Source: an uncultured Planctomycetota bacterium (GTDB taxonomy: Bacteria; Planctomycetota; PLA2; JAEUHO01). Taken from it: a DNA stretch of 64,000 nt. Position numbers and translations under genes: made by a program. Position 1 is the stretch's first letter, and the number at the start of each line of letters is the position of its first letter. Below, in pieces: positions 975 to 58,761 of this stretch. The stretch is from contig CAVVXN010000005.1 of the NCBI GenBank assembly GCA_963752285.1, positions 96,001 through 160,000 on the forward strand. Reading direction: 5' to 3'. A model generated the notes under the pieces. The model was not told where the DNA came from, did no database searches, and saw only the letters and a list, made by a program, of their open reading frames with translations.

Positions 975-2255
975 TCACGCGACCTCGAGGCCGGAGGGGA
1001 CGCCCCGCGCGAGGTAGAGCGCGGGCGCCAGGCGGTCCCGGACGCGGGGTCCCGAGACCGCCCGTCCGGCCAGCGCGACTCCCCGGTCGCCGAGGCGCGC
1101 GGCGATCGCGGCGAGGCGGGCGCGGCGACCGGGGACGGGCGGATGGAGGTCCGCGCCCCGCCGGACCGTCGCCTCGCGCGGCCGGACGGGTCGGCCGATC
1201 GCGCGCGAGAGGTCCGCGATCGCGGCCTCCTTCCAGATCGGCGACGCGAGGTCCACCGCCGGCCGATCGGGGTCGCCGCCGTAGTGCAGGTCCACGACCG
1301 CCTCGTCGGGCGCGGTCGCCGCGGCGTCGAGGTTGGAGCGGACGACCGCGACGTTGGCGCGAGCGCGCGCGTCGGTCGCGAAGAGGAGACCGCGCACGGG
1401 GGGGAGACGCCTCGCGTCGGGGGGGCCGAGGCGGAGCGTGACCCAGAGGGTCGGTGCGGTCTCGATCGCGCGGAGCTCCTGGGCGGCGAGCGGGTCCAGG
1501 TCGTCGAGGAGTCGCGCCGCGTCGCGCGGGCCGAGCGCGAGGACCACCCGGCGCGCGACGAGGACCGAGTCGTCGGCGAAGTGAACGCGGGGGCAACCCG
1601 GCTCGGCCTCCGGCGCGGCCGAGAGGGAGCGCGCCGACACGTCGATCACCACGTCCACCCGAGGGACCGCCGCGCGGAGCGCCGACCCGAGCGCCGCCTC
1701 TCCGCCTTGGACGAGGCGCACGGCCGGGTCCTCGAGCGGGTGCACGAGGAGCGCGTTCGCCGCGCGGACGCCGCCCCGCGCGTGCGCGGCGACGACGTCG
1801 GGGAGCGCGTCGGCCGCGCCCAGCGCCGCCGCGCGCGGTCCGTAGATCGCGCGTGCGAGCGGGTGGAGCCACGCGCGCGCGTACGCGGGCCGGAAGGCGC
1901 GGTCCGCGAACGTCCCGAGCGTCTCGGGACGCCCGGCGCGGTCGCGACGTGCCCGCGCGAGGGGCACGCCGACCGGTTCCGCCAGCGGGGCGAGGCCCCG
2001 TCGGCGCACGACGAGCACGGGCCCGATCCCCTCGCGAGGGGTGGCGAACGGTGGGGGGCTCGGAAGCCCCGCGAGGAGGGCCTGGACCCTCGGGTCGCCC
2101 GTCTCGAGGAGGCAGGGGCAGTCGGCGCCGTCCCCGGTCGAGAGCGCGTCGTCTCCCGGAACGGAGACCAGACGGTCGGGACGCGCGGCGAGCGCCGCGG
2201 CCCAGCCGGCGAGGTCGTCGCCGATCACGACCCGGTCGGGGATCTCGTCCTCCAT
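975..2255 (-). CDS. Divergent FAD-dependent oxidoreductase, protoporphyrinogen/coproporphyrinogen oxidase (HemY)-like
   Basis: HemY-like segments TFADRAFRPAYARAWLHPLARAIYG, ARRVVLAL and GVALAGRAVSG. The N-terminal dinucleotide motif is degenerate (VIGDDLAG). TACGCT lies 6 nt before the ATG. Confidence 0.5.
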   Translation of the reverse strand: MEDEIPDRVVIGDDLAGWAAALAARPDRLVSVPGDDALSTGDGADCPCLLETGDPRVQALLAGLPSPPPFATPREGIGPVLVVRRRGLAPLAEPVGVPLARARRDRAGRPETLGTFADRAFRPAYARAWLHPLARAIYGPRAAALGAADALPDVVAAHARGGVRAANALLVHPLEDPAVRLVQGGEAALGSALRAAVPRVDVVIDVSARSLSAAPEAEPGCPRVHFADDSVLVARRVVLALGPRDAARLLDDLDPLAAQELRAIETAPTLWVTLRLGPPDARRLPPVRGLLFATDARARANVAVVRSNLDAAATAPDEAVVDLHYGGDPDRPAVDLASPIWKEAAIADLSRAIGRPVRPREATVRRGADLHPPVPGRRARLAAIAARLGDRGVALAGRAVSGPRVRDRLAPALYLARGVPSGLEVA

Positions 2256-15124: not shown

Positions 15125-17416
15125 TCAGCGGTCGAGGAAGAGGCCGTAGAGCGGGGACCCGGCGGGGTTCTTCTCGTCGAACGCGCCCGTGCCCACCGTC
15201 GTGTCGTCCTTCCGACCCGACGAGTAGACGTCCCGGCCGCCGCCGAGGTCCAGCAGCGCCGAGAACGAGAAGACCTTGTCGGCGTCGTAGTGGTACTCGT
15301 TCCCGCCGCCCTGGCCCTGGGCCGACGCGGCGGCCGCCGCGTAGCGGTCGTCGCCGCCCTGGTCTGCGAGGATGGCGATCGCCTGCATCGCCGCACTGCC
15401 CTGTCCCAGGCCGTCGCAGCGGTAAGCGTCGTTCCCCGCGCGGTCGAGCAGGAGGCCGATCGACTGGTCCCACGTGCCCGCCTGGCTCGCGGCGGTCATC
15501 GACCAGTACGTGTCGCTGCCCTGATCGTCCACGAGGATCCCGATGGCCTCGTGGGCCGCGAAGGCCTGACCGTAGCGGTTGCCGTGGTAGAGGTCGTCGC
15601 CCGAGACGTCGTGGAGGAGGCCGAGGCCGAAGTAGTACCCGCCGGCCTGCGCGAACTCGCCCGCGTCGTAGCGGTCGTTCCCGCCGAGGTCCTCGATCGC
15701 GCCGAGGCCGCCGGCGGCGTAGCCCCGCACGCCGAAGCCGAACGCCTGGCTCATCGCCGCGTACACCGCGGGGGTCCCGTACGCCGAGGGCACGTCGGGC
15801 CCGTCCGCGACGTAGAGGTCGTTGCCGCGGCGGTCCACGATCGCGCCGATGCCGCGCGGTCCGCCCACGCCCTCGACGTAGCGCTCGCCGCGGTACACGT
15901 CGGCCCCGTCCTGGTCGATCAGGAGCCCCACGCCCCAGAACCCCGCGCCGAGGCCCCAGCCGGAGTCCTTGCCCATCGACTCGTACACGTCGTTCCCGCC
16001 GCGGTCGAGAAGCACGCCGACGCCCATGAGCCCCGCCCCGACGCCGAAGGGGGACTCGGTCCGGTACACGTCGTTCCCCGCCCGGTCGTCGAGCCACGAC
16101 AGGCCGAGCACCGTCGTCGCGGGGCCCTCGAAGGCCGCCTTCGCGAGGTGGCGGTCGTTTCCCGCGAGGTCGATCACGACGCGGAGGGCGAAGGGCGGGG
16201 ACGCCCCGTAGTCGTACTCGTCGTCTCCGCCGACGTCGTACACGGCGCCCAGCTTCGACATCTCGTACCGGTTCGGCCCCGGGCCGCCGACGACGGCGAG
16301 GTGGCCGAGCGGGTCCTTCCCGGCCCAGAGCACGTCGCCCTCCACCGCCGCGCGGACGTCGGGAGGCACCTCGGCGAGCGCCGTTGGGTCTGCGTGGGTC
16401 CGGGCCTCGGCCTCCCAGGCCGCCGGCGCGTGGCGCAGCAGGACGAGCGCGAGGGCCATCACCTCCCTCGCGTGGGGGCCGCCGATCCGGTTGATCGTCT
16501 CGACGTGCTGGTCGGCGTGCTCGTCGTAGACGTAGACGTCGTTCGTCAGCGTGCGGAGGAGCGTCTCGAGCGGCGAACGCCAGTCCTTGGCCCAGGTCTC
16601 GAGTCGGGCGCCCGCCTCGCGGACGAGCGCGTCGTCGTCGGGGTTCTCTCCCTCGCCGGCCGGGGGCGAAGGCTGGTCGAGCACCGCGCGAACCAGCGCC
16701 TCCACGTGCGCGGGGTCGCCGTCCTGGACGGCCTGGAGCGGAGGGTCGAGCCCGCGCGCGACCGCGTCGGCGCTGAGCGGCCGCCGGAAGCACTGCACGA
16801 CGGCGGAGAGCGAGTCCGGGTCGAGCGCGTCCTCCTGGACCTTCGCGAGGTAGGGGAGGAGCGCTTCGAGGCCTCCGCCCACGCCTTCCTTCCCGGTCCA
16901 CGCCCCGACGGCCTTCGCGCCCTCGATCAGGGTCTTCTCGAGTTCGCCCTCCGGCGTCGGGGGGACGACACGGCCTCCGAGCCCGCGGCCCACGCGTCCG
17001 GCCCAGCGGTCGCGCGAGCCGAGCGTCGCCTTCACGGTGAAGGGCTCGCCGCCCTCGCCGCCGTGGGGGACCGCGCTCTCGGGATTCGCCTCGCTCGAGC
17101 GACGCAGCACGAGCGTCACCTCGTCGCCCGGCTTCTTGGACCGGACGTAGGCCTTCAGTGCCTCGGCGTCCCGGGGCTCGCCGTCCACCGACACGAGGTT
17201 GTCGTCGCGCCGGACGCCCAAGGTGGACTCGGTGCCGCGTCCTCCCAAGGGCCCCGGCACGATCCACGAGACGACGGGACCGTGCGCGCCGTCGCGCACG
17301 TAGAGCCCGAGGAAGGGCTGCTCCGCCCACGGCCGCGGGTCGTCGTCGGCCGCACGGGCCATGCCGCCCGCGAGCAGAACCCCGAGCCCCACGACACCGA
17401 CGATCGCGCTCTGCAT
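15125..17416 (-). CDS. Secreted PDZ-domain protein with C-terminal DxxG(N/D)DxY glycine-rich repeats
   Basis: Signal peptide ending ARA; PDZ (PFLGLYVRD...GVRRDDNLVSVDG...KPGDEVTLVLRR); about 12 repeats such as DRAGNDVY, DRGGNDVY and DLGGNDRY. TATGCT lies 6 nt before the ATG. Confidence 0.75.
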   Translation of the reverse strand: MQSAIVGVVGLGVLLAGGMARAADDDPRPWAEQPFLGLYVRDGAHGPVVSWIVPGPLGGRGTESTLGVRRDDNLVSVDGEPRDAEALKAYVRSKKPGDEVTLVLRRSSEANPESAVPHGGEGGEPFTVKATLGSRDRWAGRVGRGLGGRVVPPTPEGELEKTLIEGAKAVGAWTGKEGVGGGLEALLPYLAKVQEDALDPDSLSAVVQCFRRPLSADAVARGLDPPLQAVQDGDPAHVEALVRAVLDQPSPPAGEGENPDDDALVREAGARLETWAKDWRSPLETLLRTLTNDVYVYDEHADQHVETINRIGGPHAREVMALALVLLRHAPAAWEAEARTHADPTALAEVPPDVRAAVEGDVLWAGKDPLGHLAVVGGPGPNRYEMSKLGAVYDVGGDDEYDYGASPPFALRVVIDLAGNDRHLAKAAFEGPATTVLGLSWLDDRAGNDVYRTESPFGVGAGLMGVGVLLDRGGNDVYESMGKDSGWGLGAGFWGVGLLIDQDGADVYRGERYVEGVGGPRGIGAIVDRRGNDLYVADGPDVPSAYGTPAVYAAMSQAFGFGVRGYAAGGLGAIEDLGGNDRYDAGEFAQAGGYYFGLGLLHDVSGDDLYHGNRYGQAFAAHEAIGILVDDQGSDTYWSMTAASQAGTWDQSIGLLLDRAGNDAYRCDGLGQGSAAMQAIAILADQGGDDRYAAAAASAQGQGGGNEYHYDADKVFSFSALLDLGGGRDVYSSGRKDDTTVGTGAFDEKNPAGSPLYGLFLDR

Positions 17417-23475: not shown

Positions 23476-24145
23476 CGGTTCGGACCTCGCCGACGAGGAC
23501 TCGTTCGCCGCTCGCCACGGTCGGGAGCGTGGCGGCGATCTTCGCGCCGTCCTCGAACGTGGCGGCGCAGGCGATCTCGACGCGATTCGAGGAGGGCTTC
23601 GTCGCCCGGACAGAGAGGCTCGGCATCGACGGGAGGTCCACCGCGACCTCCGCTCCGTCGGGCACGACGAGGCGGGGCGCTTCGAGGACGTGTCCCTCGG
23701 CGTCGCGCAATTCGAGGAACACGACGCGTCGCTCGTCGTCGGAGGCGCGCGGAGTGAAGCCGATCACGACCTCGCCGCCGGAGGACGCGATCCACGACAC
23801 GCGCTCGCCGAGGCCCTGGTCGATCGCCTCGAGGACCTTCCGTTCGTGCTCGGCCCACGCGAGGGGCACCGGCGACTCCGCCGTCGCGGCCCGGGGACGG
23901 AGCGCGAGCCCCGCGCCGACGCCGACGCCCACGAGCACGACGGCGGCGGCGGCGAGGACCGCGACGCGACGTCGCGTCCCGAGCGCGCGGCGGGCCAGGA
24001 GCGCACCGAGGAGGGCGTCCTCGGCGCCGGCGCGCGGTTCGGGCGCGCGGTCTCGGTCGCGCTGGTCCCAGCGATCGAACGCCAGGACGGCGTGGTCGGG
24101 CGGCGCGTCGTCGTGCGGCTGGGGTCGGGGATCAGACGTGGTCAC
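23438..24145 (-). CDS. Putative single-TM anti-sigma factor
   Basis: Directly downstream of and overlapping an ECF sigma gene. Short cytoplasmic N-terminus, TM (VAVLAAAAVVLVGVGVGAGLAL) and an extracytoplasmic domain. Confidence 0.6.
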   Translation of the reverse strand: MTTSDPRPQPHDDAPPDHAVLAFDRWDQRDRDRAPEPRAGAEDALLGALLARRALGTRRRVAVLAAAAVVLVGVGVGAGLALRPRAATAESPVPLAWAEHERKVLEAIDQGLGERVSWIASSGGEVVIGFTPRASDDERRVVFLELRDAEGHVLEAPRLVVPDGAEVAVDLPSMPSLSVRATKPSSNRVEIACAATFEDGAKIAATLPTVASGERVLVGEVRTGGRALALYAAAR

Positions 24146-24671
24146 GGAGCACCTCTCCGAGGCGGCGCTTCGCCTCGTGGACGCGCCAGGAGACGGTCCC
24201 CTCCGCGCACGAGAGGCAGCGTGCGGCCTCGGCGTGCGAGTAGCCCGCGAAGGTGGTCAGGACGATCGCGGTGCGGAGGTCGTCGGGCAGGCCGCGCATC
24301 GCCTCGTGGACGAGGCGGGAGCGCTCCTCGTGCTGGACGTCCTGGACCAGACTTCGCGGACCGGGGCGGGCGTCGCCGTCGAGCCCCGTCGTCGGACGGC
24401 GGCGACGGCGGTCGTTGAGGTACAGGTGGATCCCGATCTTCGTGATCCAGCTCCCGAGCGCGGCCTCGCCGCGGTACGTGCCGAGACGCTCGAGCGCCCG
24501 CCCGAACGTCTCCTGGCAGAGGTCGTCCGTCTGGTCGGGGTCGCGGGTGAAGCGCCAGAGCGTCTTCCAGACGGGTCGGTAGTGGCGCTTCACGATCTCG
24601 CTCCGGGCCAGGGGGTCTCCTCGCCGCGCGCGTCCGAGCAGGACCGCGAGATCCAGGTCGTCCGGCGTCAT
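24132..24671 (-). CDS. ECF RNA polymerase sigma factor
   Basis: DDLCQETFGRAL, YRGEAALGSWITKI (region 2); LPDDLRTAIVL...YSHAEAARCLSCAEGTVSWRVHEAKRRL (region 4). Confidence 0.92.
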   Translation of the reverse strand: MTPDDLDLAVLLGRARRGDPLARSEIVKRHYRPVWKTLWRFTRDPDQTDDLCQETFGRALERLGTYRGEAALGSWITKIGIHLYLNDRRRRRPTTGLDGDARPGPRSLVQDVQHEERSRLVHEAMRGLPDDLRTAIVLTTFAGYSHAEAARCLSCAEGTVSWRVHEAKRRLGEVLRDHV

Positions 24672-24732
24672 CGGCGTCGAGGACCTCCGCTCCGTTCGAC
24701 ACGGGGTCGGCGCGGTTCCTTGGCGCTGGCCG

Positions 24733-27072
24733 TCAGCGCCCACCCGTCGCCTCCTTCCCGAGCCACGGCTTCGTCGCGCGCTGCCGGGCCTGGACCGTCT
24801 GCTCGAAGGTCGTCCACGTGTCCGGGCGGGCCTCCGGCTTCGGGACCTCGTCCTCCGGGATGCCCAGTCGGGCGGCCAGGCGCGTCAGCCCGTCCTGGAA
24901 GCCCCGGACGACCGTCGGGTCGCGCCACCCCGCGACGGCGCGGTCCCAGAACGGGAAGACGTCCGGGAGGTCCATCTCGCCGAGGTCCGAGAGCACGCGC
25001 GCACGCCCGTCCGACGGGAGGCCGTCGTACCCGCGGACGACGTCGTCGAAGCGCGCCTTCCGCCGCGCCAGCTCGTGGATCCACCGGGCCGCGAGGTCGG
25101 GCGCGGGACCCTGTCCCCAGGTCCATCCGACCGAGCTGGGCGACACGCGTCGCACGAGCTCCCGGAACGGGTCCAGGCGCCCCGGCGCGAGGTACAGGCG
25201 GTAGACCTCGGCCTGCTCGCCCGAGAGGGTGCGTTCCTGCTTCGCGTACCACGCGGCCAGCCGGTCGGCGGTCGCCCCCGGGTCGGGCCCGCCGCCCGCC
25301 ACCGCCAGGAGCGCGTACTGGAGGAGCTCGGCGTCCTCGTCGAACGCGTCGAGGAGCGCCCACGCCTCCTTCGCGGCGGCCTCGGGGTCGGCGGCGCCGA
25401 GGAGCAGGAGCCCCGCCGTGCGCTCGCTGGAGCGGGAGGACGCGAGGAGGTCTCGGCCGAGGTCGGCGGCGCCGGGCGGCCGGGCGTCCAGGTACCGGAC
25501 CAGCTCGAGCGCGTCGTCGGGGAACCGGCGCGAGGCAACGATCTCACCGGCGCGCTCCGTGGCGCGTCGATGGAGCTCGGCCTCCCGATCGTAGGTCTCC
25601 TTCGTGGTGGCCCCGGTGGTGAGTCCCGCGCCCGAGCAGAACGCGAACCGGGCGGCCTTGCGGAGCTCCGCCGACGGGTCGTCGAGCAGCGCGAGGAGCG
25701 CGTCGGCGACGGGAGGGACCTTCGTGGCCCACGGCGCGAGCTTCGAGACGAGCTGGGCGCGGTACCGGGCGGTGAAGGCGCCGTCCCCGAGACGAGACGC
25801 GAGCCGGGCGACGAGGGCCGCGTCGAGCGGGACCTGCGACACGCCCTCGAGCGAGACGGTCTCGTCGGGACTCGCGGCCGCCTCGGACTCCGCGTCCCGG
25901 ATCGCCGCGAGGACCTCGGAGGAACGGAGGTGGGGCCCGACGGCGTCGAGGAAGCGGGCCACCGGGTCGCGCTCCTCCGGACGCGCGGCGAGGAGGCCCC
26001 GCGCGAACCGGGCCGCGCGCTCGGGGGTGAACAGCTCGCGGAAGCGATCCAGGGCGCCGTGCTCGAAGAGCCACAAGGACGTGGGCTCGTGGGCGAAGAC
26101 GTAGACGAATCGGTCCGGATCGCGGTCGGCGATCGCGAGGAGGATCCGGGAGGCCAGCTCGGACTCGATCGCGTAGGGGAGCGCCGCCTCGAGCTCGGGG
26201 AGCGACGTCTTCGGGTCGTCCGTCGCGCGGGTCACGGCGCGGACCCGCTCGTCGTCGTCCGCGCCCGAGACGAGCACCTCCGCGAGCGAGGGCGGGGACG
26301 CCGTCGGGACCGATCGGCCTGCCTCGTCGCCCGCGATCCGGGAGAGCGCCTTCTCGGCGGACGCACGAAGGGCCCCGTCGGGCGCCGCGGCCAGATAGGA
26401 GCGAAACGAGATCTCCGCGTGTCCCGGCTGCCCGAGCGCGAGGTACGCCTCGCCGGTCCAGTACGAGGTCTCGGGGAAGCGGACGGCGAGGTGCGCGGCC
26501 TGGAGCAGCTCGCCGATCGCCTCGGCGGCGCGGCCCGTCCGGAGGTGCGCCAGGCCGCGCAGGTAGTGGAGCGAGGCGGCCGCGGTCCGGTCCGCGGCGG
26601 GCCGCGTGGCGGGAGCGGGTCGGCCGAGGCGCTCCGCGACCGCCGCCGCGGCCGTTCGCGCCGCGCCTTCGAGGTCGCCGGTCGCGTCCACGGTGCCGAC
26701 GAGCGCTCCGTCCGGGACGGAGAGGACGCGGAGCACGTAGCGCCAGCGACCCTCCTCGAGCGCGACGGTGCCCGTCACCGCGCGGGTGGCGGCGAGGAGG
26801 TGGCCGATCCGCACCGCGTCGGTCGCGCCGGCCGCCGTGGCGAGCCCCTGTTCGGCGAGCGCGCGGTCCACGTCCGCGCGGTCCACGAGCGTGACGCCCT
26901 CGATCGTGCCGAGCGAGGCGGAGAGCACGTCCGTCGCGGCAGGGCCCAGGTCCGACGACGTGGATCCTCCGGCGGCCTCGAGCGGCCACACGAGCAGGGT
27001 CGCGGCGTCGTCCGCCGCCGCCGGTCGCGCGAGGCCCAGGATCGCGACGAGTAGGAGGAGCCGGCGCCTCAC
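24733..27072 (-). CDS. Secreted CsgG-like + TPR + HEAT-like repeat protein
   Basis: GTG at 27072 starts a complete signal peptide (RRRLLLLVAILGLARPAAA); LVDRADVDRALAEQGL (CsgG-like); HYLRGLAHL...YWTGEAYLALG (TPR). It is the 3' half of the 1791-aa track ORF. Confidence 0.65.
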   Translation of the reverse strand: MRRRLLLLVAILGLARPAAADDAATLLVWPLEAAGGSTSSDLGPAATDVLSASLGTIEGVTLVDRADVDRALAEQGLATAAGATDAVRIGHLLAATRAVTGTVALEEGRWRYVLRVLSVPDGALVGTVDATGDLEGAARTAAAAVAERLGRPAPATRPAADRTAAASLHYLRGLAHLRTGRAAEAIGELLQAAHLAVRFPETSYWTGEAYLALGQPGHAEISFRSYLAAAPDGALRASAEKALSRIAGDEAGRSVPTASPPSLAEVLVSGADDDERVRAVTRATDDPKTSLPELEAALPYAIESELASRILLAIADRDPDRFVYVFAHEPTSLWLFEHGALDRFRELFTPERAARFARGLLAARPEERDPVARFLDAVGPHLRSSEVLAAIRDAESEAAASPDETVSLEGVSQVPLDAALVARLASRLGDGAFTARYRAQLVSKLAPWATKVPPVADALLALLDDPSAELRKAARFAFCSGAGLTTGATTKETYDREAELHRRATERAGEIVASRRFPDDALELVRYLDARPPGAADLGRDLLASSRSSERTAGLLLLGAADPEAAAKEAWALLDAFDEDAELLQYALLAVAGGGPDPGATADRLAAWYAKQERTLSGEQAEVYRLYLAPGRLDPFRELVRRVSPSSVGWTWGQGPAPDLAARWIHELARRKARFDDVVRGYDGLPSDGRARVLSDLGEMDLPDVFPFWDRAVAGWRDPTVVRGFQDGLTRLAARLGIPEDEVPKPEARPDTWTTFEQTVQARQRATKPWLGKEATGGR

Positions 27073-29634
27073 CGCGGGATCTCCGTGGTGAGCACCCACG
27101 TGCCCGTGCCCCAGGAGGTCGTGACCAGCGTGCTGCACGGTGTCGTCGGGGCCGACCCACACGTCCTTCGGCATCGACTCGGCCTCCGTGAGGTGCGGAC
27201 CCGTCCACGCCGCGCCGTCCCGGGACGTGAACAGCCCGAACGCGCCGTCGGCCGTGCGATCCCAGAGGACCAGCGTTCCGTCGGGGGCACGGCCGAGGAC
27301 GGGACCCCAGAGGTAGCGAGAGAGGACGCCGGCCGTTCCCGTAACGGCGAGCTCCTGTGGCGCGCCGGCGCGGGGCCACCGCGTCACTCGGATCTCCCGG
27401 CCCATCGCGCGCGACGCGACGAGGACGGCTCCGTCCGGCAACGCGACGGCGGTGCCTCGCGCATCTTCGCCCACGAGCAGACGGGGTGCGCTCCAGGTCA
27501 TGCCGTCGGACGTGTCGATCTCGTAGATGCCGGCGCCGTCCGGCCCCTGGGCCGAGCGGAGGATCACCCGGCTCTCGCCGAGGTCACCCTCGAGGATCTG
27601 CACGTCCCCCTCGGCGAGGAACACCTGGGTCCCCGCCGCGGGTCCCAGGTAGGTGCGTTCCGCGTCGTGACCACGAATCGGGAACGCGATCCGCCGTGGC
27701 CACGACCATTCGACGAGATCGTCCGAGGTGGAGGCGTAGAGGCACGCCCACGTCGGGTTCCCCCGATTGGAGATCCAGACCAGGAGCCACCGTCCGTCGG
27801 CCATTCGCCCCAGGGCCGGGTGATCGTCGTACGCCGAGGACGACACCGAGAGCCGCCTCGGCGCGCCGAACGTCCGGCCGCCGTCGCTCGACGAGACGAG
27901 CCAGAGGTCGGGGTCCACCCACGGGTCGAGATGGGCCGGCGGGTCGTCCGGCTCGCCCCACCAGCTACCCCGTGCCGCCGCCAGCACGACGTGGACCGCG
28001 CCCTGCGGCCCCGTGGCGACGCGCAGGTGCTCGATCGGGCGGCCGAGCTCCGGCGCGAGCGGTGCCGCCCCGCCGATCGAGGGCGCGGGCCCGTCGCGCG
28101 CGTGGGCTCCCTCGGGGACGAGCTCGGCTCGCGTCTCGATCGAGTCGAGTCGGACACCCCGGGGCTCGGCCGAGACCCACACCTGGGCCACCGGAGGAGA
28201 GAACCGCATCGTCCGATCGACCGGCTCGGCGTCCCCGGCGGGAACGGTGATCTCCGTGACGACGTGCTGCGGACCGTTTACGCCGCCCCATCCGGACAAG
28301 AGGAGCGTCCCGGAGGATGCGTCGTCGTCTCGATGCGCCCCGACGTGCCAGTCGAGTCGCGAGATTCGCAGCCCGCGCGCGGCGAGGATCTGGAGCCCGG
28401 CGGGGAGGGAGGGGCCGCCCGGTTGGGGCGCCGGATCGACGGAAAGCGAACACCGCGGTGCGCTCGCGGACAGGACGACGCAGCCCGGAGGCACGGGTGT
28501 CGTCGGATCGACGGCGCGGACCGCGCGCGCGTACAGGGCGGCGTAGAGTCCGCCCAGGCCCGCGGCGACGCCGTGGAGCTCCTCCCAGGCATGGGTGGAC
28601 CAGAGGGCCTTCATGCGCTCGACGCTGGCGCTCCTCGCGAGGTCGGGCTGGAAGTGCACGTCGCGGGCCTGGCAGAGCTTCCATCGCGCGTAGACGAAGG
28701 CGAGGGCGTCGCTCCAGCGACCCTTCCGAGCGAGATCGAGCGCCAGGCGGCCGACGAGCGCGGAGGTCTCGGGGTGGTAGGGGAAGCGCTCGATGGCTCG
28801 CGCGAGGGTCTCCTCCGCGCCGTCAGCACGGCCGGGCTCTCCTTCGATCGCATCGGCGGCGAGCCGGGCCGCGCGCACGACCGCGTTCGGGTCGCGCGAG
28901 GTCCGGACGAGCTCCTCCCACGTGAGGGCGGCGTGCGCGTGCTGACCGAGATCCTGGTAGAGCCGCCCGAGCGCGAGCGCGGCGTCGGTGAAGGCCGGCT
29001 CCGCCTCCAGCGCGTGCGTCAGCCCGACGAACGCGCGGGGGTAGTCCGCGTCGTCCTCGGCGGCCAGTGCCCGGTAGTACGCGGCCATCGCCTCGACCGA
29101 GACCGGCGGCAGCAGGACGGCCGGCTCGAGCCCCTCGGCGCCGAAGACGGCCTGCGTCATGTCCGCGACGAGCCGGCCGAGCGTCGGGACCGTGCCGTGG
29201 AGCCGCCGGCTCCGAAGCGGCGTCCCCGCGTGCGCGTCCACGACCGCGAGGTCCACGTCCACGTCGTCGCCGTTCGCCGCGAAGGTGCCGAACACCGCCC
29301 AGTCGGCGTCGGCGACCCGCGCGAGGCTCGTCGCGTCCTCGGGTCGGAGGAGGCCCACGGCCGCGAGGTCGCGCTCTCGCAGCAGCTCGGCGACGCCCTC
29401 GCGCTCGACCACGACGACGCCGGGCTTCCCGGCGAGCGCGCCCGAGAGGAGCGTCCCGAGCGCCGAGCCGAGCCAGTCGTGCGCGGGGTCCTCGGCCCGG
29501 GGCGCGAAGCGGAGCACGGCGACCTGCAGGGTCTGGGGCCGGGCCGCGGGTTCGCCGTCGGCCCGGGCCCGCGCGGTCGAGACGAGGAGCGCGAGCACGA
29601 GACCGGCCCCGGCCCACAGCGCGCCCTTCGCCAT
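27069..29634 (-). CDS. Secreted CsgG-like + TPR + BNR/Asp-box (sialidase-like propeller) protein, with an apparent +1 indel near 27130
   Basis: Signal peptide MAKGALWAGAGLVLALLVSTARA; VVEREGVAELLRE (CsgG-like); TPR helices; Asp-boxes SSDGGRTF, TSDDLVEWS, TSDGMTWS and SRDGAAWT. The natural end appears to be TLVTTSWGTGTWVLTTEIPR* at 27069. Confidence 0.65.
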
Positions 29635-29981
29635 CGAGGAGTTGGACACCCTCCCGGGCCGATTCTTGGCCGGCCCCATTCTGGCGTCGCTCGTCCCGGG
29701 CCCATCGGAGCAGCCCGTTCGTCCGTGCGCAACGACGCTTCGGGGTGGGGGAGGTCGAACGCGAGGCCCCCGGATCCACGTGCCGGCCCGCGAGGGCGCG
29801 GGCCGCGTGAACGGACGAGCCGGGGCCGCAGGGAGCCGCATGGGCCGAGCCGCGGCGCGGAGACCTCCGGCGCTGGCAAGCGTGGCGACGGGGCGCGGCG
29901 CCGGCCGCGAACGGGGTTCGGCATGCCCTCCCGAGCCCGGATTCAGGGGCTCTGGGGGCCGACCGGCGGGGCCCCCGGGAC

Positions 29982-30003
29982 TGTCGGTGGTTCGTTTTAT
30001 GTT
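29982..30003 (+). promoter_or_regulatory. PafBC/RecA-NDp-type DNA-damage-inducible promoter motif
   Basis: TGTCGG-TGGTTCGTTT-TATGTT = TGTCGG-N10-TAnnnT, including the extended TGTCGGTG, 40 nt before the ATG at 30044. Confidence 0.65.
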
Positions 30004-30043
30004 AGGTGGATCGGACCGCGCTACCACCTTGGGGGATCTCCTC

Positions 30044-32521
30044 ATGCAAGCCGTCGAAGACGTCCGCCGCGCCCTCTCGTCGATCGACCTCGTCCAGGGC
30101 CTCTCCATCCACCACGTCGAGACCCACCTCGAGATGGGGCTCCGCCTCGGGGACGTGGGGCAACGCGTCCTCGCCTTCTACCTCCTGGAGATGGAGACGC
30201 GGGGGCTCCACCAGGCGCTCGGCTACGCCACGACCGCCTACTACGCCGAGGACCGGCTCGGTCTCGACCGCCGCCGAACGGCGGAGCTGCTGCGGGTCGG
30301 GCGACGGCTCCTGGAGCTCCCGGAGATCGACCAGGCCTTCTGCGAGGACCGGCTCCCGTGGTCCAAGGTGCTCCTCCTCTCGCGGGTCGTCGAGCCCGCG
30401 CACGAGGCGGCCTGGCTCGCGCGCGCGCTCGCGCTCACGAAACGGGACCTGGAGCAGGAGGTCCGCGTCGTCAGGCCCGGCGCGCCGCCGCCCGCGTCCG
30501 GGGAGCGGATGGGACTTCCGCAGGTCCGCTTCACGGTCGAGATGAAGGTCTCGCCGCTCGTCCAGGCGAAGCTCGAGCAGGCGAAGGCGCGGGTCGAGTC
30601 GGAGCGCGAGACCCCGATCGGCGACGCGGAGCTCCTGGACGTCGTCCTCGACACGTTCCTCTCCTTCGAGGACGACGGGACGATCCCCGGGAAGAAGCGC
30701 GTCGCGCGTTCGCTCTACCAGATCGTGCTCCGCGAGGAGGCGTGGCCCGACGAAGGCACGCCGGGGGGAGTACCTGGAGAGCAGGGCCGAGACGAAAGTG
30801 ACGAAAGCGACGGAGGCGGCGGCGCGGCGCCGGACGACCGGACCCGCGAGTCGCTGGGGGACGCGAGGCCGCCGGGGGACGCGAGGCCGCCGGGCGACGC
30901 GAGGCTGCCGGGCGACGCGAGGCTGCCGGGCGACGCGAGGCTGCCGCCGATGCCGCGACTCCTCCTCGAGAGCGGCATCCCGCTCGCCGAGGCGTGGAGC
31001 GCGGCGGTGCGCTGCGACGCCGAGGTCTCGGGCTGCCGGCAGGACGTGCCCCACGAAGAACGCGACCCGAAGACGCCGCGCTGGATGCGGAGGCGGGCGC
31101 TCGCGCTCGACGGCCACCGGTGTCGATCGTGCGGCTCGCGCTACCGGCTGATGGTCCACCACGTCGCCTTCCGGCGCCGAGGCGGGAAGACGAGGCTCCA
31201 GAATGTCGTGACCCTCTGCGTTCGCTGTCACGCGCTGGTCCACGAGGGGCTCCTCGAGGTCGAGGGACGAAGCGGAGGGGAGGTCCGGCTCGCGGGGATC
31301 GACGGGCGGTCGATCCGGACGCCCCTCGCGCCCGCCGACCGGAGGGCGGTGATCGGGATCCCGTCCACCCGCAACGGGTCGGAGTCCGACGGACGGGCGC
31401 GCGCCTCGCCCGCGCCTTCGCTCCCGCCGCGCGTGGCCCTCGCGGACGTGCCCCTGGAGATCGACGCCGCGTGGTGGCACCGGCACCGGGACCTCGTCCG
31501 GTTCCGGAGCGAGACGGAGGTCGAGCTCGAACCGGGACGGCCCAAGGCCGAAGCGACGAACGAGGCGCGTGGCGAGGCGGGCCCGCCATCGCAAGCGGGC
31601 GTGTCCTTCGAGGAGGCGTTCGAGGGTCTCGTCGGGCAGGAGGACCTGCTCCGGCGGATCGAGGTGGCCTTCGAGGGATCCAAGGCGCGGGGCCGCGCGG
31701 TCCCGCACCTCCTCCTGGTCGGTCCCCCGGGGACCGGCAAGACCACGATCGCCCGGCGTCTCTCCACGCTCGAAGGCGCGCGGCTCGTGGAGGCGAATGG
31801 CGCGTTCCTGGACGCGCCGGGTTCGCTCGTGCGGATCCTCGCGGGACTCCGGGACGGCGACGTCCTCTTCGTGGACGAGGTCCACGCGCTCGCGCCGGCG
31901 GCGCAGGAGGTCCTCTACCCGGCGATGGCCGAGGGGCGGCTCGGGCTCGTGTTCGGACGGGGATCCGAGACCCGGACGGTCTCGTTTTGGCTCCCGCGCT
32001 TCACGCTCGTCGCCGCGACGACGGAGGAAGCGAAGGTGTCGGGTCCGCTTCGCTCGCGGTTCGGGCTCGTGGAGACGCTCGGGTTCTACGAGGAGGCCGC
32101 GCTGGTGCGGCTGGTGGACGAGCACGCGCGAAGGGAGGGCGTAGACCTCCCGGTGGAGTCGGCCGAGGCGCTCGTCCGCGTGGCCCGCGGGACGCCCCGG
32201 GAGGCGCTCCGGCTCCTCGAGCGGACGCTCGACCTCGCGGCGGCGGAGGGCGTGCCCCGGGTCTCACCGGAGATCGTAAAGGAGGCGCTCCGGATGCTCG
32301 GGTTCGACGCGGACGGCCTGAACCCTGCCGAGCGGCGCTACCTCGCGCTGCTCCGGGGGCGTCGCGGACCCGTGCCCCTCGCGCGGCTCGCGCGGATGCT
32401 CGGGACGAGCGCCGTGGCGGTGGCGCGGCAGATCGAGCCGTACCTGTGTCTTCGAGGCTTCGTCCAGGTGACGGCGATGGGTCGGCTGGCGTCGTACCGG
32501 CCGCGGATCGCGCAAGCCTGA
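30044..32521 (+). CDS. DUF222-like - HNH endonuclease - RuvB-like AAA+ ATPase fusion protein (825 aa)
   Basis: N-terminus LGYATTAYYAEDRLGL...LLELPEIDQAFCEDRLPWSKV (DUF222-like). HNH at about 31085..31250: CRSC...VHHV...GG...NVVTLCVRCHALVH. RuvB from about 31600: VGQE, HLLLVGPPGTGKTT, LFVDEVH, EVLYPAM, FTLVAATT, PLRSRFG, RGTPR, IEPYL...GR. Confidence 0.9.
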   Translation: MQAVEDVRRALSSIDLVQGLSIHHVETHLEMGLRLGDVGQRVLAFYLLEMETRGLHQALGYATTAYYAEDRLGLDRRRTAELLRVGRRLLELPEIDQAFCEDRLPWSKVLLLSRVVEPAHEAAWLARALALTKRDLEQEVRVVRPGAPPPASGERMGLPQVRFTVEMKVSPLVQAKLEQAKARVESERETPIGDAELLDVVLDTFLSFEDDGTIPGKKRVARSLYQIVLREEAWPDEGTPGGVPGEQGRDESDESDGGGGAAPDDRTRESLGDARPPGDARPPGDARLPGDARLPGDARLPPMPRLLLESGIPLAEAWSAAVRCDAEVSGCRQDVPHEERDPKTPRWMRRRALALDGHRCRSCGSRYRLMVHHVAFRRRGGKTRLQNVVTLCVRCHALVHEGLLEVEGRSGGEVRLAGIDGRSIRTPLAPADRRAVIGIPSTRNGSESDGRARASPAPSLPPRVALADVPLEIDAAWWHRHRDLVRFRSETEVELEPGRPKAEATNEARGEAGPPSQAGVSFEEAFEGLVGQEDLLRRIEVAFEGSKARGRAVPHLLLVGPPGTGKTTIARRLSTLEGARLVEANGAFLDAPGSLVRILAGLRDGDVLFVDEVHALAPAAQEVLYPAMAEGRLGLVFGRGSETRTVSFWLPRFTLVAATTEEAKVSGPLRSRFGLVETLGFYEEAALVRLVDEHARREGVDLPVESAEALVRVARGTPREALRLLERTLDLAAAEGVPRVSPEIVKEALRMLGFDADGLNPAERRYLALLRGRRGPVPLARLARMLGTSAVAVARQIEPYLCLRGFVQVTAMGRLASYRPRIAQA
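30857..30946 (+). repeat. In-frame 18-bp tandem repeat x5 (GDARPP x2, GDARLP x3)
   Basis: GG(G/C)GACGCGAGGC(C/T)GCCG repeated five times. Confidence 0.95.
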
Positions 32522-32750
32522 CGGAGGGAGGGAGGAGGAGCGCCCGCACGAACACGAGCAGGGAGCGGGAAGAGCGGGCCCCCGCACGGTAGAGGGCGGC
32601 CGACCAGGTCGCGCGAGCGAGGGCGGGGGATCCCGGCCTCGGGCGCGCGGGCGTCGGGCGTCGCTCGGCGCGAGCTTGGTGGCCGAGCTCGGTGGCTCGG
32701 CGTGCGTCGGGCGGCTCTTTGTAAAGACGCGCGCGCGCCGAACGTTCGGC

Positions 32751-57006: not shown

Positions 57007-57429
57007 TCAACGGATGCGCCGCGGCGTGAGCGGCAGGAGCACGGGTTCGACGGGGACGGTGGGACGGGCGAACGACTCGCGCGCGTCCGCGCTCGAGGCT
57101 CTGGGCCCCGGCGCGCGACTCGTCACGACGAGCGTCACGACGACGCCGGCGGCGAACGCCGCGACGTGGCCGAGCGCGAGGCGCACCGCGCGTCGTGGCG
57201 CGCGGGGGGCCGGCGCGCGCGCCCGGATCCGCGACGCGAGGTCCATCGGCGGCCCGGGCACCTCGTACGGTCGGTAGAGCCGCGCCCGGTCCGCGGCGTG
57301 CCGTCGCGCCTCCTCGGCGCAGGACGTGCAGCCTTCGAGGTGCGCGCGCACGCGTCGTGCGCGCTCGGGCGCGAGAAGGTCGTCGAGGTGGTCCGGGAGG
57401 AGGGCGCGGACTTCCGAGCAGTCGTTCAT
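57007..57429 (-). CDS. Zinc-binding (zf-HC2) anti-sigma factor
   Basis: CSEVRALLPDHLDDLL...HLEGCTSC (HxxxCxxC) and one TM; ATGA overlap with the sigma gene. Confidence 0.9.
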   Translation of the reverse strand: MNDCSEVRALLPDHLDDLLAPERARRVRAHLEGCTSCAEEARRHAADRARLYRPYEVPGPPMDLASRIRARAPAPRAPRRAVRLALGHVAAFAAGVVVTLVVTSRAPGPRASSADARESFARPTVPVEPVLLPLTPRRIR

Positions 57430-57917
57430 CGTTCGTCCTCGAGGAGGGAGCCGAGTCGGCGGGCGAGGGTCTCGCGAGCGCGGCGGAAGCGGTCCTTCGC
57501 CGCGCGCTCGCTGACGCCGAGCGCGGCGGCGACCTCGCGGTAGGGGAGCTCGTGGTGCGCGCGGAGCAGGAACGCGCTCCGAAGCTCCGGATCGAGCCGG
57601 AGCACCTCGTCCCGCACGCGGCGGTCGAGGTCGCGCAGGTCGGACGAGGGCGCCGTGGGATGGGCCGGCGGCTCGCCGACGAGCGCGCCGCCGCGTCGCC
57701 GTCGGAGCGCGTCGATCCCCAGGTTCGTCGCCACCTTGAAGAGCCACGGGCCGAGCGAGCCGTTCGCGCCGGCGAGGCGGCGCTCGTGCGCGAGGTAGCG
57801 GAGGAAGGCCTCCTGTGCGAGCTCTTCCGCGAGGGCGCGGTCGCCGGTCAGGCGCGCGAGGTACGCGTAAATCGGGCCGCCGTAGCGGCCGTAGACCTCG
57901 TCGAAGGATCGGCCCAT
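57426..57917 (-). CDS. ECF RNA polymerase sigma factor
   Basis: AEELAQEAFL, WLFKVATNLGIDALRRR, LPYREVAAALGVSERAAKDRFRRARETL. The start is 57917 or 57926. Confidence 0.92.
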   Translation of the reverse strand: MGRSFDEVYGRYGGPIYAYLARLTGDRALAEELAQEAFLRYLAHERRLAGANGSLGPWLFKVATNLGIDALRRRRGGALVGEPPAHPTAPSSDLRDLDRRVRDEVLRLDPELRSAFLLRAHHELPYREVAAALGVSERAAKDRFRRARETLARRLGSLLEDER

Positions 57918-57996
57918 GCACCCCATCCCACGGACGGCGGGGGGGCCGGGGGAAGCGAAATCCCCCGCGGCGGGGTCCGACGCGCTCGCGCGGGGG

Positions 57997-58761
57997 TCAG
58001 AAGGCCATGACGATGGCGCCCGCGGCGAACGCCATCACCGCGAGGCTGAACAGCACGAACGCGAACAGGAGGATCACGCGCGCGGCCCCGCAGCGGAGCG
58101 CCGCGCTCGCGCAGCTGATCCACACGACGCTCTCGACGGGCAGCACCCAGATGGCGCGGTCCGCGCGGAGCATGGTGTCGTAGAAGAGCATGTCCGCGCC
58201 GAGCATGCCGCCGAGGACGATCGCGAGGAACGACGCGCGGAAGAAGCCGAGCAGCTCGATCTCCGCGAGACGTCCGCCCAGCGCCACCAGCGCGTAGAGC
58301 GCGGCGAAGAGCAGGAGTCCGAGCGAGGTCCGCCCGCCGAGCGACGTCGGGATCGACATCTTGGCCACGCGGGCCAGCCGCCGGAAGAACCCCTCCTCGC
58401 GGACGTCGGGCTCCTCCGCGGGGAGCCGCTCCGCCGGCGCCTCCGTCGGCGTCGCGCTGGGGTCGATGGACTGCGCCGCCGCGGACCAGTCCGAGAACGC
58501 GCTGTCCTGGTGGTCCTTGTGGCTCTCGGCCCGGACGGGGACGAAGCGGCTCACGATCCGCGCCTTCTGGACCGTGACCGTGGCGTCTCGGCCGAAACCG
58601 GAGAGGCGGAGCTCGACCTCCCCGTCCCGCTCCTGCACGACGTGTCCGCGGAAGACCGCGCCATTGTCGAGGACGATGATCTCCTCGGACGCGTGGGCCG
58701 CGGTCGCAAAGGCGCCGAGCGCGAGGAGGAGGAGGACGGCGGTCAGCAGGCGGCTGGGCAT
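57997..58761 (-). CDS. Hypothetical membrane protein
   Basis: Signal peptide, small beta domain (IIVLDNGAVFRGHVV) and about four C-terminal TM segments. Confidence 0.7.
   Translation of the reverse strand: MPSRLLTAVLLLLALGAFATAAHASEEIIVLDNGAVFRGHVVQERDGEVELRLSGFGRDATVTVQKARIVSRFVPVRAESHKDHQDSAFSDWSAAAQSIDPSATPTEAPAERLPAEEPDVREEGFFRRLARVAKMSIPTSLGGRTSLGLLLFAALYALVALGGRLAEIELLGFFRASFLAIVLGGMLGADMLFYDTMLRADRAIWVLPVESVVWISCASAALRCGAARVILLFAFVLFSLAVMAFAAGAIVMAF

Follow-up and report, generated by a model that had tools for sequence, protein, structure and literature searches.

A conserved PafBC-like promoter arrangement with a tandem GTTCGTA repeat upstream of HNH–RuvB fusion genes in Planctomycetota

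The HNH–RuvB fusion gene and its upstream region

The window, a 64-kb stretch of DNA with a G+C content of about 74%, contains a gene for a protein of 825 residues (P0001) in which an HNH nuclease domain is fused to a RuvB-like motor. The gene stands alone because its upstream neighbour is divergent and its downstream neighbour convergent. The following features were located in and around the gene:

29635–29981, no strand: remaining GC-rich divergent intergenic region, from the codon-position GC profile
29982–29987, plus strand: TGTCGG, candidate upstream promoter element at the position of the PafBC ‘-26 element’ (position counted from the -10 hexamer)
29988–29997, plus strand: 10-nt spacer TGGTTCGTTT between both hexamers, containing the first repeat unit
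29990–30007, plus strand: tandem repeat GTTCGTT-TTAT-GTTAGGT with an 11-bp period, overlapping the spacer and the -10 hexamer; putative repressor operator
29998–30003, plus strand: -10 hexamer TATGTT (TAnnnT type), ending 40 nt before the ATG
30010, plus strand: predicted transcription start (A), placed 7 nt past the -10 hexamer from the position of the latter
30031–30036, plus strand: Shine–Dalgarno-like GGGGGA, 7 nt before the ATG
30044–32521, plus strand: HNH–RuvB fusion gene (P0001), 825 residues, ATG at 30044–30046
30044–30733, plus strand: DUF222-like N-terminal domain, residues ~1–230
31121–31243, plus strand: HNH domain (PF01844, E 2e-8), residues 360–400
31616–32494, plus strand: RuvB-like AAA+ module (RuvB_N, AAA_lid_4 and RuvB_C in Pfam), residues 525–817
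32737–32750, no strand: palindrome GCCGAACGTTCGGC, 216 nt past the stop codon, with a CGAAC core as in the promoter repeats

The minus-strand gene upstream begins near 29634 or 29679, its open reading frame being coding-like only below about 29680 according to the codon-position GC profile, and the intergenic region upstream of the fusion gene is about 365–410 nt long. The sole A+T-rich spot of this region is the motif patch, which reads GGGAC TGTCGG TGGTTCGTTT TATGTT AGG on the plus strand (29977–30006), with TG as an extension directly after TGTCGG (29988–29989). The original prediction had described an exact TGTCGG-N10-TATGTT motif of the PafBC/RecA-NDp type at 29982..30003, 40 nt before the ATG of the HNH–RuvB gene, and had seen no TTGACA-like -35 element. 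Both coordinates and sequence are as claimed, and a scan of positions 29500–30150 with the sigma-70 consensus (TTGACA-16-18-TATAAT type) gave no promoter-like site. With a gap of just 10 nt to the -10 hexamer, TGTCGG lies much too close for sigma region 4 to recognize it as a -35 element. There is no terminator at the site, and no Rfam family reached its gathering score in the window.

The strict pattern TGTCGG-N10-TANNNT occurs once on both strands of the window (0.07 expected), and at least one match was obtained in 7 of 100 shuffles. The loosest form, TGTC-N12-TANNNT, also matches once (0.32 expected, at least one match in 28 of 100 shuffles). As shuffled sequences yield such matches as well, the site in the window is suggestive at most when taken alone.

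The host had been thought not to be an actinobacterium. The window encodes typical diderm functions (OEP/TolC, AcrB, HlyD and CsgG, identified by Pfam), and the best nine organism-named matches of its S-adenosylhomocysteine hydrolase, at 77–83% identity, all come from metagenome-assembled genomes (MAGs) of Planctomycetota or Planctomycetes. These matches confirm a planctomycete as the source of the DNA, and not an actinobacterium.

The start codon of P0001 agrees with the starts of its homologues in an alignment with 24 of them. Invariant in all 24 are the HNH residues CxxC...HH...N...CxxCH as well as Walker A (G-GxGK) and Walker B ((D)E) of the motor. The metal-binding and catalytic residues of the HNH domain, which lies C-terminal to the DUF222-like domain, are intact. 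Residues 525–819 align with residues 27–323 of a solved RuvB chain of 336 residues (E 2e-60). Walker motifs, lid and winged helix, the hallmarks shared with the RuvB Holliday-junction motor, are all present, whereas the about 520 N-terminal residues including the HNH nuclease are an addition of P0001. The protein misses the cut-offs of the NCBIfam RuvB equivalogs (NF000868, 260.5 versus 282; TIGR00635, 245.5 versus 299.05). In terms of these profiles, the motor is a RuvB-like paralogue and not the housekeeping RuvB.

The conserved N-terminal domain of P0001 has no match to PF02720 (DUF222), even at E≤1, nor to any other Pfam family. Its relative P0153, a protein of 369 residues with 34% identity to P0001 over 388 columns (E 6e-55), scores 24.7 bits against PF02720 at a cut-off of 24.4. 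A HMMER search with residues 1–420 retrieved 10,190 cluster representatives at E≤0.001, of which 1,602 had E≤1e-10 and 188 had E≤1e-30. Stand-alone relatives were represented by 52 matches of 345–496 residues chosen from the best 150; 48 of them have an HNH domain and six have DUF222 (E≤0.01). The ESM Atlas cluster nearest to residues 1–240 (score 0.96) carries DUF222 on 15% of its members, its commonest phylum being Myxococcota. By these measures the N-terminal module may fairly be called DUF222-like, albeit marginally.

A reading of the fusion as part of a defence system was rejected, the AAA and HNH matches in PADLOC being weak (best 4.7e-6). Each of the 61 records of a plasmid collection which matched the fusion did so via the RuvB part only. 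Among the papers listed by a literature search, none dealt with an HNH–RuvB fusion.

Conservation of the promoter among the fusion genes

A word-based search identified 27 homologues. Those with organism names belong to MAGs of Planctomycetia or Planctomycetes, apart from one partial protein from a Polyangiaceae MAG. A genome scan with one genome per species gave 80 loci (numbered with the prefix L below), none of them from the genome of the window itself. Twenty-one of these match the N-terminal and/or HNH part plus RuvB, and all 21 are assigned to Planctomycetota, Planctomycetia or Planctomycetales. In the remaining 59 the match is confined to the RuvB part, and they represent ordinary ruvB genes from many phyla. 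Full fusions were found only in MAGs of Planctomycetota, some of which have several copies: four loci are in one MAG and two in each of three others. The fusion proteins are 33–48% identical to that of the window (closest in the genome scan 46%), and the neighbouring genes, 180 open reading frames altogether, differ among the loci.

Upstream DNA was available for 17 of the 21 fusion loci, which together with the window form a set of 18 promoters. TGTC[GC][GCT]-N9-10-TAnnnT is found at the same place in 13 of them. The strict form TGTCGG-N10-TAnnnT accounts for seven (window, L001, L003, L004, L005, L014 and L015), TGTCC[CGT]-N10-TAnnnT for four (L007, L009, L010 and L011) and TGTCCC-N9-TAGTAT for two (L012 and L076). 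L002 has only a looser version (N12, TCATGT), and TGTC...TAnnnT is absent from the remaining four of the 18 promoters (L008, L013, L017 and L078). TGTC is invariant in the 13 motif-bearing promoters; it is followed by C instead of G in six of these. Eleven of the 13 have a spacing of N10, and L012 and L076 one of N9.

Motif frequencies were determined on both strands of the window plus the 21 fusion loci (356,837 nt) and compared with 100 dinucleotide shuffles. The strict motif occurs seven times, versus a mean of 0.33 and a maximum of two in the shuffles. All seven matches are at fusion promoters, on the gene strand and 37–67 nt upstream of the predicted start codon, and there is no further strict site in the 357 kb. 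For the relaxed motif, 14 matches were observed (3.3 expected), 13 of which are at fusion promoters, the exception being at L009:6306. The other 59 loci (844 kb) contain five strict matches, in genomes of 43–49% G+C, none of them planctomycete. Nor was the motif found in 90,410 nt of planctomycete DNA around ordinary ruvB genes, taken as five loci from other MAGs. Among the genes of the window and of the fusion loci, no recA, uvr or ordinary ruv gene was seen whose promoter could be compared. Since the motif was seen before no other gene, it may be specific for this gene rather than the mark of a regulon.

The promoters were further compared in a TGTC-anchored alignment of 10 sequences. In this alignment TA...T is invariant, and only TGTC, TA...T and a tandem repeat, which is described below, are retained. 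Upstream of TGTC no column is conserved, and over 100 nt the flanks of different loci are 18–44% identical, which corresponds to chance at such a composition. The distance from the -10 hexamer to the predicted start codon is 37–40 nt in eight of the 13 promoters and 43–74 nt in the other five, and in the relatives a GGAG-type site follows the -10 hexamer at the same place as in the window. In the protein tree, the motif-bearing genes are spread over four or more deep groups, the terminal branches being about 0.5–1 change per site long.

Flanks with chance identity, next to genes for proteins that are 33–48% identical, indicate a selected promoter that travels with its gene. As judged from these alignments, the pattern of conservation is one of purifying selection on the promoter and not of recent common descent of the DNA. 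The whole arrangement, including the repeat, is very probably a functional and conserved promoter/operator module. With more than 12 diverged promoters that retain nothing but the functional bases, the family would also offer a clean natural test set. A sigma-54 promoter was considered because of a TGGCAT before TGTC in L007 and L010; this was discarded upon visual inspection, as GG-N10-GC is missing in the window and most other promoters.

A tandem repeat at the -10 hexamer

The tandem GTTCGTA repeat which overlaps the spacer and the -10 hexamer had been missed in the original prediction. Two GTTCGTA-like units at a distance of 11 bp are present in all but a few of the promoters. In the window and in L010, L011 and L015, the units are located within the spacer and across the -10 hexamer. 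In the largest clade (L001–L005 and L014) they have the opposite orientation, ACGAAC-N5-ACGAAC, and are located directly after the -10 hexamer. Degenerate copies occur in L001, L005, L008, L012 and L076, those of L012 and L076 being after the -10 hexamer. L008 has the repeat without TGTC, while L007 and L009 have TGTC...TAnnnT without a clear repeat. The three loci without either element include L013 and L017, which form a well-supported pair in the protein tree.

The second unit in the window is degenerate (GTTAGGT), and GTTC-N7-GTTA of the window is not significant alone (37 one-mismatch sites versus 36.9 expected). Across the 357 kb, GTTCG-N6-GTTCG was observed seven times versus 1.67 expected, although one shuffle also reached seven. 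The exact form is present in seven related loci, in each case at the promoter. A spacing of the GTCG-N6 type proved to be inapplicable, the repeat being GTTCG-N6-GTTCG.

The repeat keeps overlapping the footprint of the polymerase while it switches side and orientation, and in this respect it behaves like the operator of a repressor. Its CGAAC core is the half-site of the LexA palindrome of Gram-positive bacteria, and the LexA motif of Verrucomicrobia is a direct repeat, TGTTC-N4-TGTTC. The LexA box of alphaproteobacteria is GTTC-N7-GTTC (PMC8565304), and of the LexA motif of Planctomycetes it is reported only that it is not that of Escherichia coli (PMC3108266). With the alphaproteobacterial box the repeat shares the direct repetition of GTTC, the period of 11 bp and the overlap with the core promoter. 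The planctomycete unit, however, is longer (GTTCGTA), the phylum is a different one and the copy in the window is mismatched (GTTA). From the actinobacterial LexA site, a palindrome, the putative planctomycete site differs by being a direct repeat.

A repeat in the form of the alphaproteobacterial LexA box implies a repressor, and the circuit is then probably not independent of LexA. By analogy, the repeat is probably a LexA-type operator. The interpretation given in the original prediction is partly supported: it had suggested that either a LexA-independent circuit or a promoter carried with the gene extends beyond Actinobacteria. The second of these suggestions fits the occurrence of the motif in 13 of the 18 promoters, in several deep clades and in unrelated contexts, whereas the GTTCGTA repeat with its LexA-box form makes it unlikely that the first holds in full.

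Comparison with WYL-dependent promoters and a model for regulation

PafBC promoters have the consensus tGTCgg(N10)tA(N3)T; their -26 element acts together with the -10 hexamer in place of a -35 element. At such promoters PafBC is placed between sigma region 4 and the DNA, with the GTC triplet as the conserved read-out. This ‘sigma adaptation’ has been described only for Actinobacteria, in which its authors suggest that it may be widespread (PMC8635444). A search of the available literature found no work which links PafBC to planctomycetes in such a sense.

The planctomycete promoters and the PafBC/RecA-NDp promoters have in common the 22-nt arrangement tGTCgg-N10-tAnnnT, the lack of a -35 element, a housekeeping-type -10 hexamer and a half-site that is single and not palindromic. 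The window, L003 and L004 also contain TGTCGGTG, reportedly the extended form of the RecA-NDp motif according to Gamulin et al. in 2004. At the level of sequence, the window and its relatives have every characteristic of a PafBC promoter, and they appear to be a genuine and conserved variant, in a new phylum, of a promoter type already known. There are also differences: the host belongs to Planctomycetota, and neither pafBC genes nor a Pup-proteasome context were seen in the window or the related loci. PafBC controls about 150 genes, whereas the planctomycete motif has so far been found before one gene family only. Unlike PafBC promoters, those of the planctomycetes have a built-in tandem-repeat operator, and TGTCC replaces TGTCG in six of 13.

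Outside Actinobacteria, damage responses driven by WYL proteins are already on record for DriD of Caulobacter and DdaA of Acinetobacter (PMC13004042, PMC13010146, PMC12392091). DriD binds ATACGAC-N7-GTCGTAT and DdaA binds CGWCA-N5-TGWCG. Comparison of these sites (CGAC-N7-GTCG in the case of DriD) with tGTCgg of PafB reveals a (T)GTCG half-site that is common to all three characterized WYL damage activators. Like PafBC, both are activators of a damage response with GTCG or TGWCG half-sites, acting on promoters without a good -35 element. Their sites, however, are inverted repeats which are bound by homodimers and located further upstream, while the planctomycete promoters have a single half-site at 10 nt from the -10 hexamer; the anchored alignment revealed no conserved inverted partner for TGTCG upstream. 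What would be new here is the PafBC-type arrangement of -26 element and -10 hexamer, and not the existence of WYL circuits.

WYL proteins have been listed for planctomycetes in Supplementary file 4 of PMC6789036, where 67 rows are assigned to Planctomycetes. All of the first 30 such rows are of class A (HTH-WYL-WCX, the architecture of PafBC), several genomes having two or three copies.

A further parallel is the 13E12 (DUF222-HNH) family of Mycobacterium tuberculosis. It is damage-induced, with LexA ChIP peaks for six members and the RecA_NDp motif for four others (PMC3381160), and recA of M. tuberculosis is itself under dual control by LexA and PafBC (PMC8682763). Both families are multi-copy HNH families with a DUF222-type N-terminal domain and, by analogy, apparently follow the same dual logic. 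They differ in that the planctomycete HNH domain is fused to a RuvB motor and in that the DUF222 match is marginal.

We propose the following model. The site would be the core promoter of the monocistronic HNH–RuvB fusion gene, embedded in a control region of composite build that has been conserved along with the gene family. In the undamaged cell, a dimeric repressor would occupy the repeat and block RNA polymerase; most likely this would be LexA or a LexA-like protein that reads the CGAAC half-sites as a direct repeat. With the repressor removed upon DNA damage, a WYL-domain activator of the winged-helix type that carries single-stranded DNA would bind the single TGTCG half-site and bridge it to the housekeeping sigma factor in a PafBC-like ‘sigma adaptation’. 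Transcription from near 30010 would yield a leader about 34 nt long. The product, with its DUF222-like domain, intact HNH domain and nearly complete RuvB motor, would presumably be induced by damage and act on branched DNA.

We give this full mechanism, with a repressor and a WYL activator on a conserved composite promoter, about an even chance. More tentatively, Planctomycetota may combine a PafBC-like sigma adaptation, with a WYL protein on TGTCG at -26, and LexA on the tandem GTTCGTA repeat at the same promoters, in which case the mycobacterial dual control of DUF222-type HNH elements would be old and cross-phylum. If the model is correct, the PafBC-type reading of promoters extends to a distant diderm phylum, and a first handle is available on the regulation of the DNA-damage response and on the LexA motif in planctomycetes. 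The HNH–RuvB fusions represent an undescribed multi-copy family, likely of damage-induced DNA-processing enzymes; dual control would then drive an expanded family of self-contained nuclease-plus-branch-migration motors.

The activator might be of another kind. The promoter would then be real and conserved, with TGTC read by a non-WYL factor, for instance another activator of the class II type or a planctomycete sigma factor of an unusual kind, and the likeness to PafBC would be convergent. A gene with a WYL or a LexA/S24 domain is found neither among the 51 open reading frames of the window nor among the 180 neighbouring ones of the related loci, which likewise lack lexA and recA, as does the window. 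The lack of a WYL gene suits such a factor, as do the two ECF-type sigma genes in the window, the occurrence of the motif before one gene family only, as a dedicated regulator would give, and the fact that just four to six bases are common with the PafBC box. This reading is nevertheless somewhat unlikely, because the 10-nt gap between TGTCGG and the -10 hexamer matches no known -35/-10 pair of the sigma-70 family, the -10 hexamer is a housekeeping-type one, three separate clades of WYL activators share the TGTCG half-site and the spacing is exactly N10 in 11 of the 13 motif-bearing promoters.

It is distinctly unlikely that the fusion is an ordinary SOS gene, for which the tandem GTTCGTA repeat as LexA operator provides all regulation and TGTC merely strengthens the promoter without a damage-sensing partner. 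A promoter with neither a -35 element nor an adaptor should be very weak, TGTC is conserved as strictly as the -10 hexamer, and L007 and L009 retain TGTC...TAnnnT in the absence of a clear repeat. These arguments have to be set against the known LexA-box form of the repeat, which always overlaps or abuts the -10 hexamer, against the presence of the repeat without TGTC in L008, and against the direct LexA control of most 13E12 genes in M. tuberculosis (PMC3381160).

The elements could also act not in transcription but in moving or maintaining a selfish HNH cassette of several copies, for instance as sites of recognition or recombination. Several copies per genome (four loci in one MAG, two in each of three others), varying genomic contexts and a CGAAC-core palindrome beside the genes in four of 22 sequences (window plus 21 loci) are in line with such a cassette, and the 13E12 repeats of M. 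tuberculosis have been described as insertion elements with phage attachment sites (PMC3381160). In most loci, however, the elements are at a fixed 37–40 nt before the start codon with the ribosome-binding site in between, which is promoter-like, and no convincing terminal repeats flank the gene in the window. We regard this possibility as very improbable. A chance match without function, for which the shuffles of the window alone might speak, is hardly credible in view of the recurrence at the same position before homologous genes with unrelated flanks.

The palindrome core CGAA[CT]GTTCG is present in seven copies in the 357 kb, one in the window and two each in L005, L010 and L011, all of them beside or inside fusion genes.

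A palindrome associated with the HNH-RuvB fusion gene

A palindromic core, CGAA[CT]GTTCG, occurs seven times in 357 kb (the window plus 21 fusion-gene loci, designated by L-numbers, from a scan of one genome per species), each time adjoining or within an HNH-RuvB gene. It was found at the following positions:

Window 32737-32750, GC-rich palindrome GCCGAACGTTCGGC
L005, 188 and 978, palindromes with this core
L010, 228 and 303, palindromes with this core
L011, 9844 and 11834, palindromes with this core

The window palindrome lies 216 nt 3' of the fusion-gene stop; in L005, L010 and L011 the position is 140-220 nt 5' of the fusion-gene start. The palindrome shares its CGAAC unit with the promoter repeats, the tandem GTTCGTA-like units at fusion-gene promoters. 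It might form a hairpin, bind a protein or mark the edge of a cassette.

Internal repeats and copy number of the fusion gene

Inside the window fusion gene, an 18-nt unit is repeated in tandem:

Window 30853-30946, four to five copies, encoding peptide repeats (P)PGDAR(L/P)

All 23 aligned homologues are gapped at the linker holding the repeats, so this stretch is a lineage-specific insertion.

Up to four fusion loci were present in a single MAG (L001, L002, L005 and L016); pairs from one MAG are L007 and L011, L009 and L017, and L069 and L078. The genomic contexts of these multi-copy genes are unrelated. The copy in L009 is broken and adjoins an IS21-type IstB fragment.

Sigma factor genes and tRNA-like calls in the window

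Two genes for ECF-type sigma factors (Sigma70_r2 and r4_2) and two tRNA-like ARAGORN calls of 91-93 nt were found:

24135-24884 (-), ECF sigma factor
57429-58034 (-), ECF sigma factor
1899-1991 (-), tRNA-like, Ala-cgc
16423-16513 (+), tRNA-like, Asp-atc

The first sigma gene is located directly 3' of the gene for a 1,600-residue secreted CsgG/BNR protein, which is divergent from the fusion gene. Rfam at gathering score detected no tRNA in the window, and the second call sits within a long coding-like ORF; in DNA this rich in GC, both tRNA calls are probably false positives.

Neighbouring genes in related loci

In L003 (121-5697, minus strand), at a distance of 4-10 kb on the 5' side of the fusion gene, a helicase with DEAD, Helicase_C and MrfA Zn-binding domains adjoins an exonuclease of the RNase_H_2 type; together the two resemble MrfAB, the mitomycin-repair pair. 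TIR and FGE-sulfatase domains are joined in single ORFs in L012 (18316-20211) and L076 (17857-19875). The L020 record is titled Candidatus Kuenenia stuttgartiensis but has 72% G+C; since the G+C content of that organism is far lower, the source record may have been misbinned.
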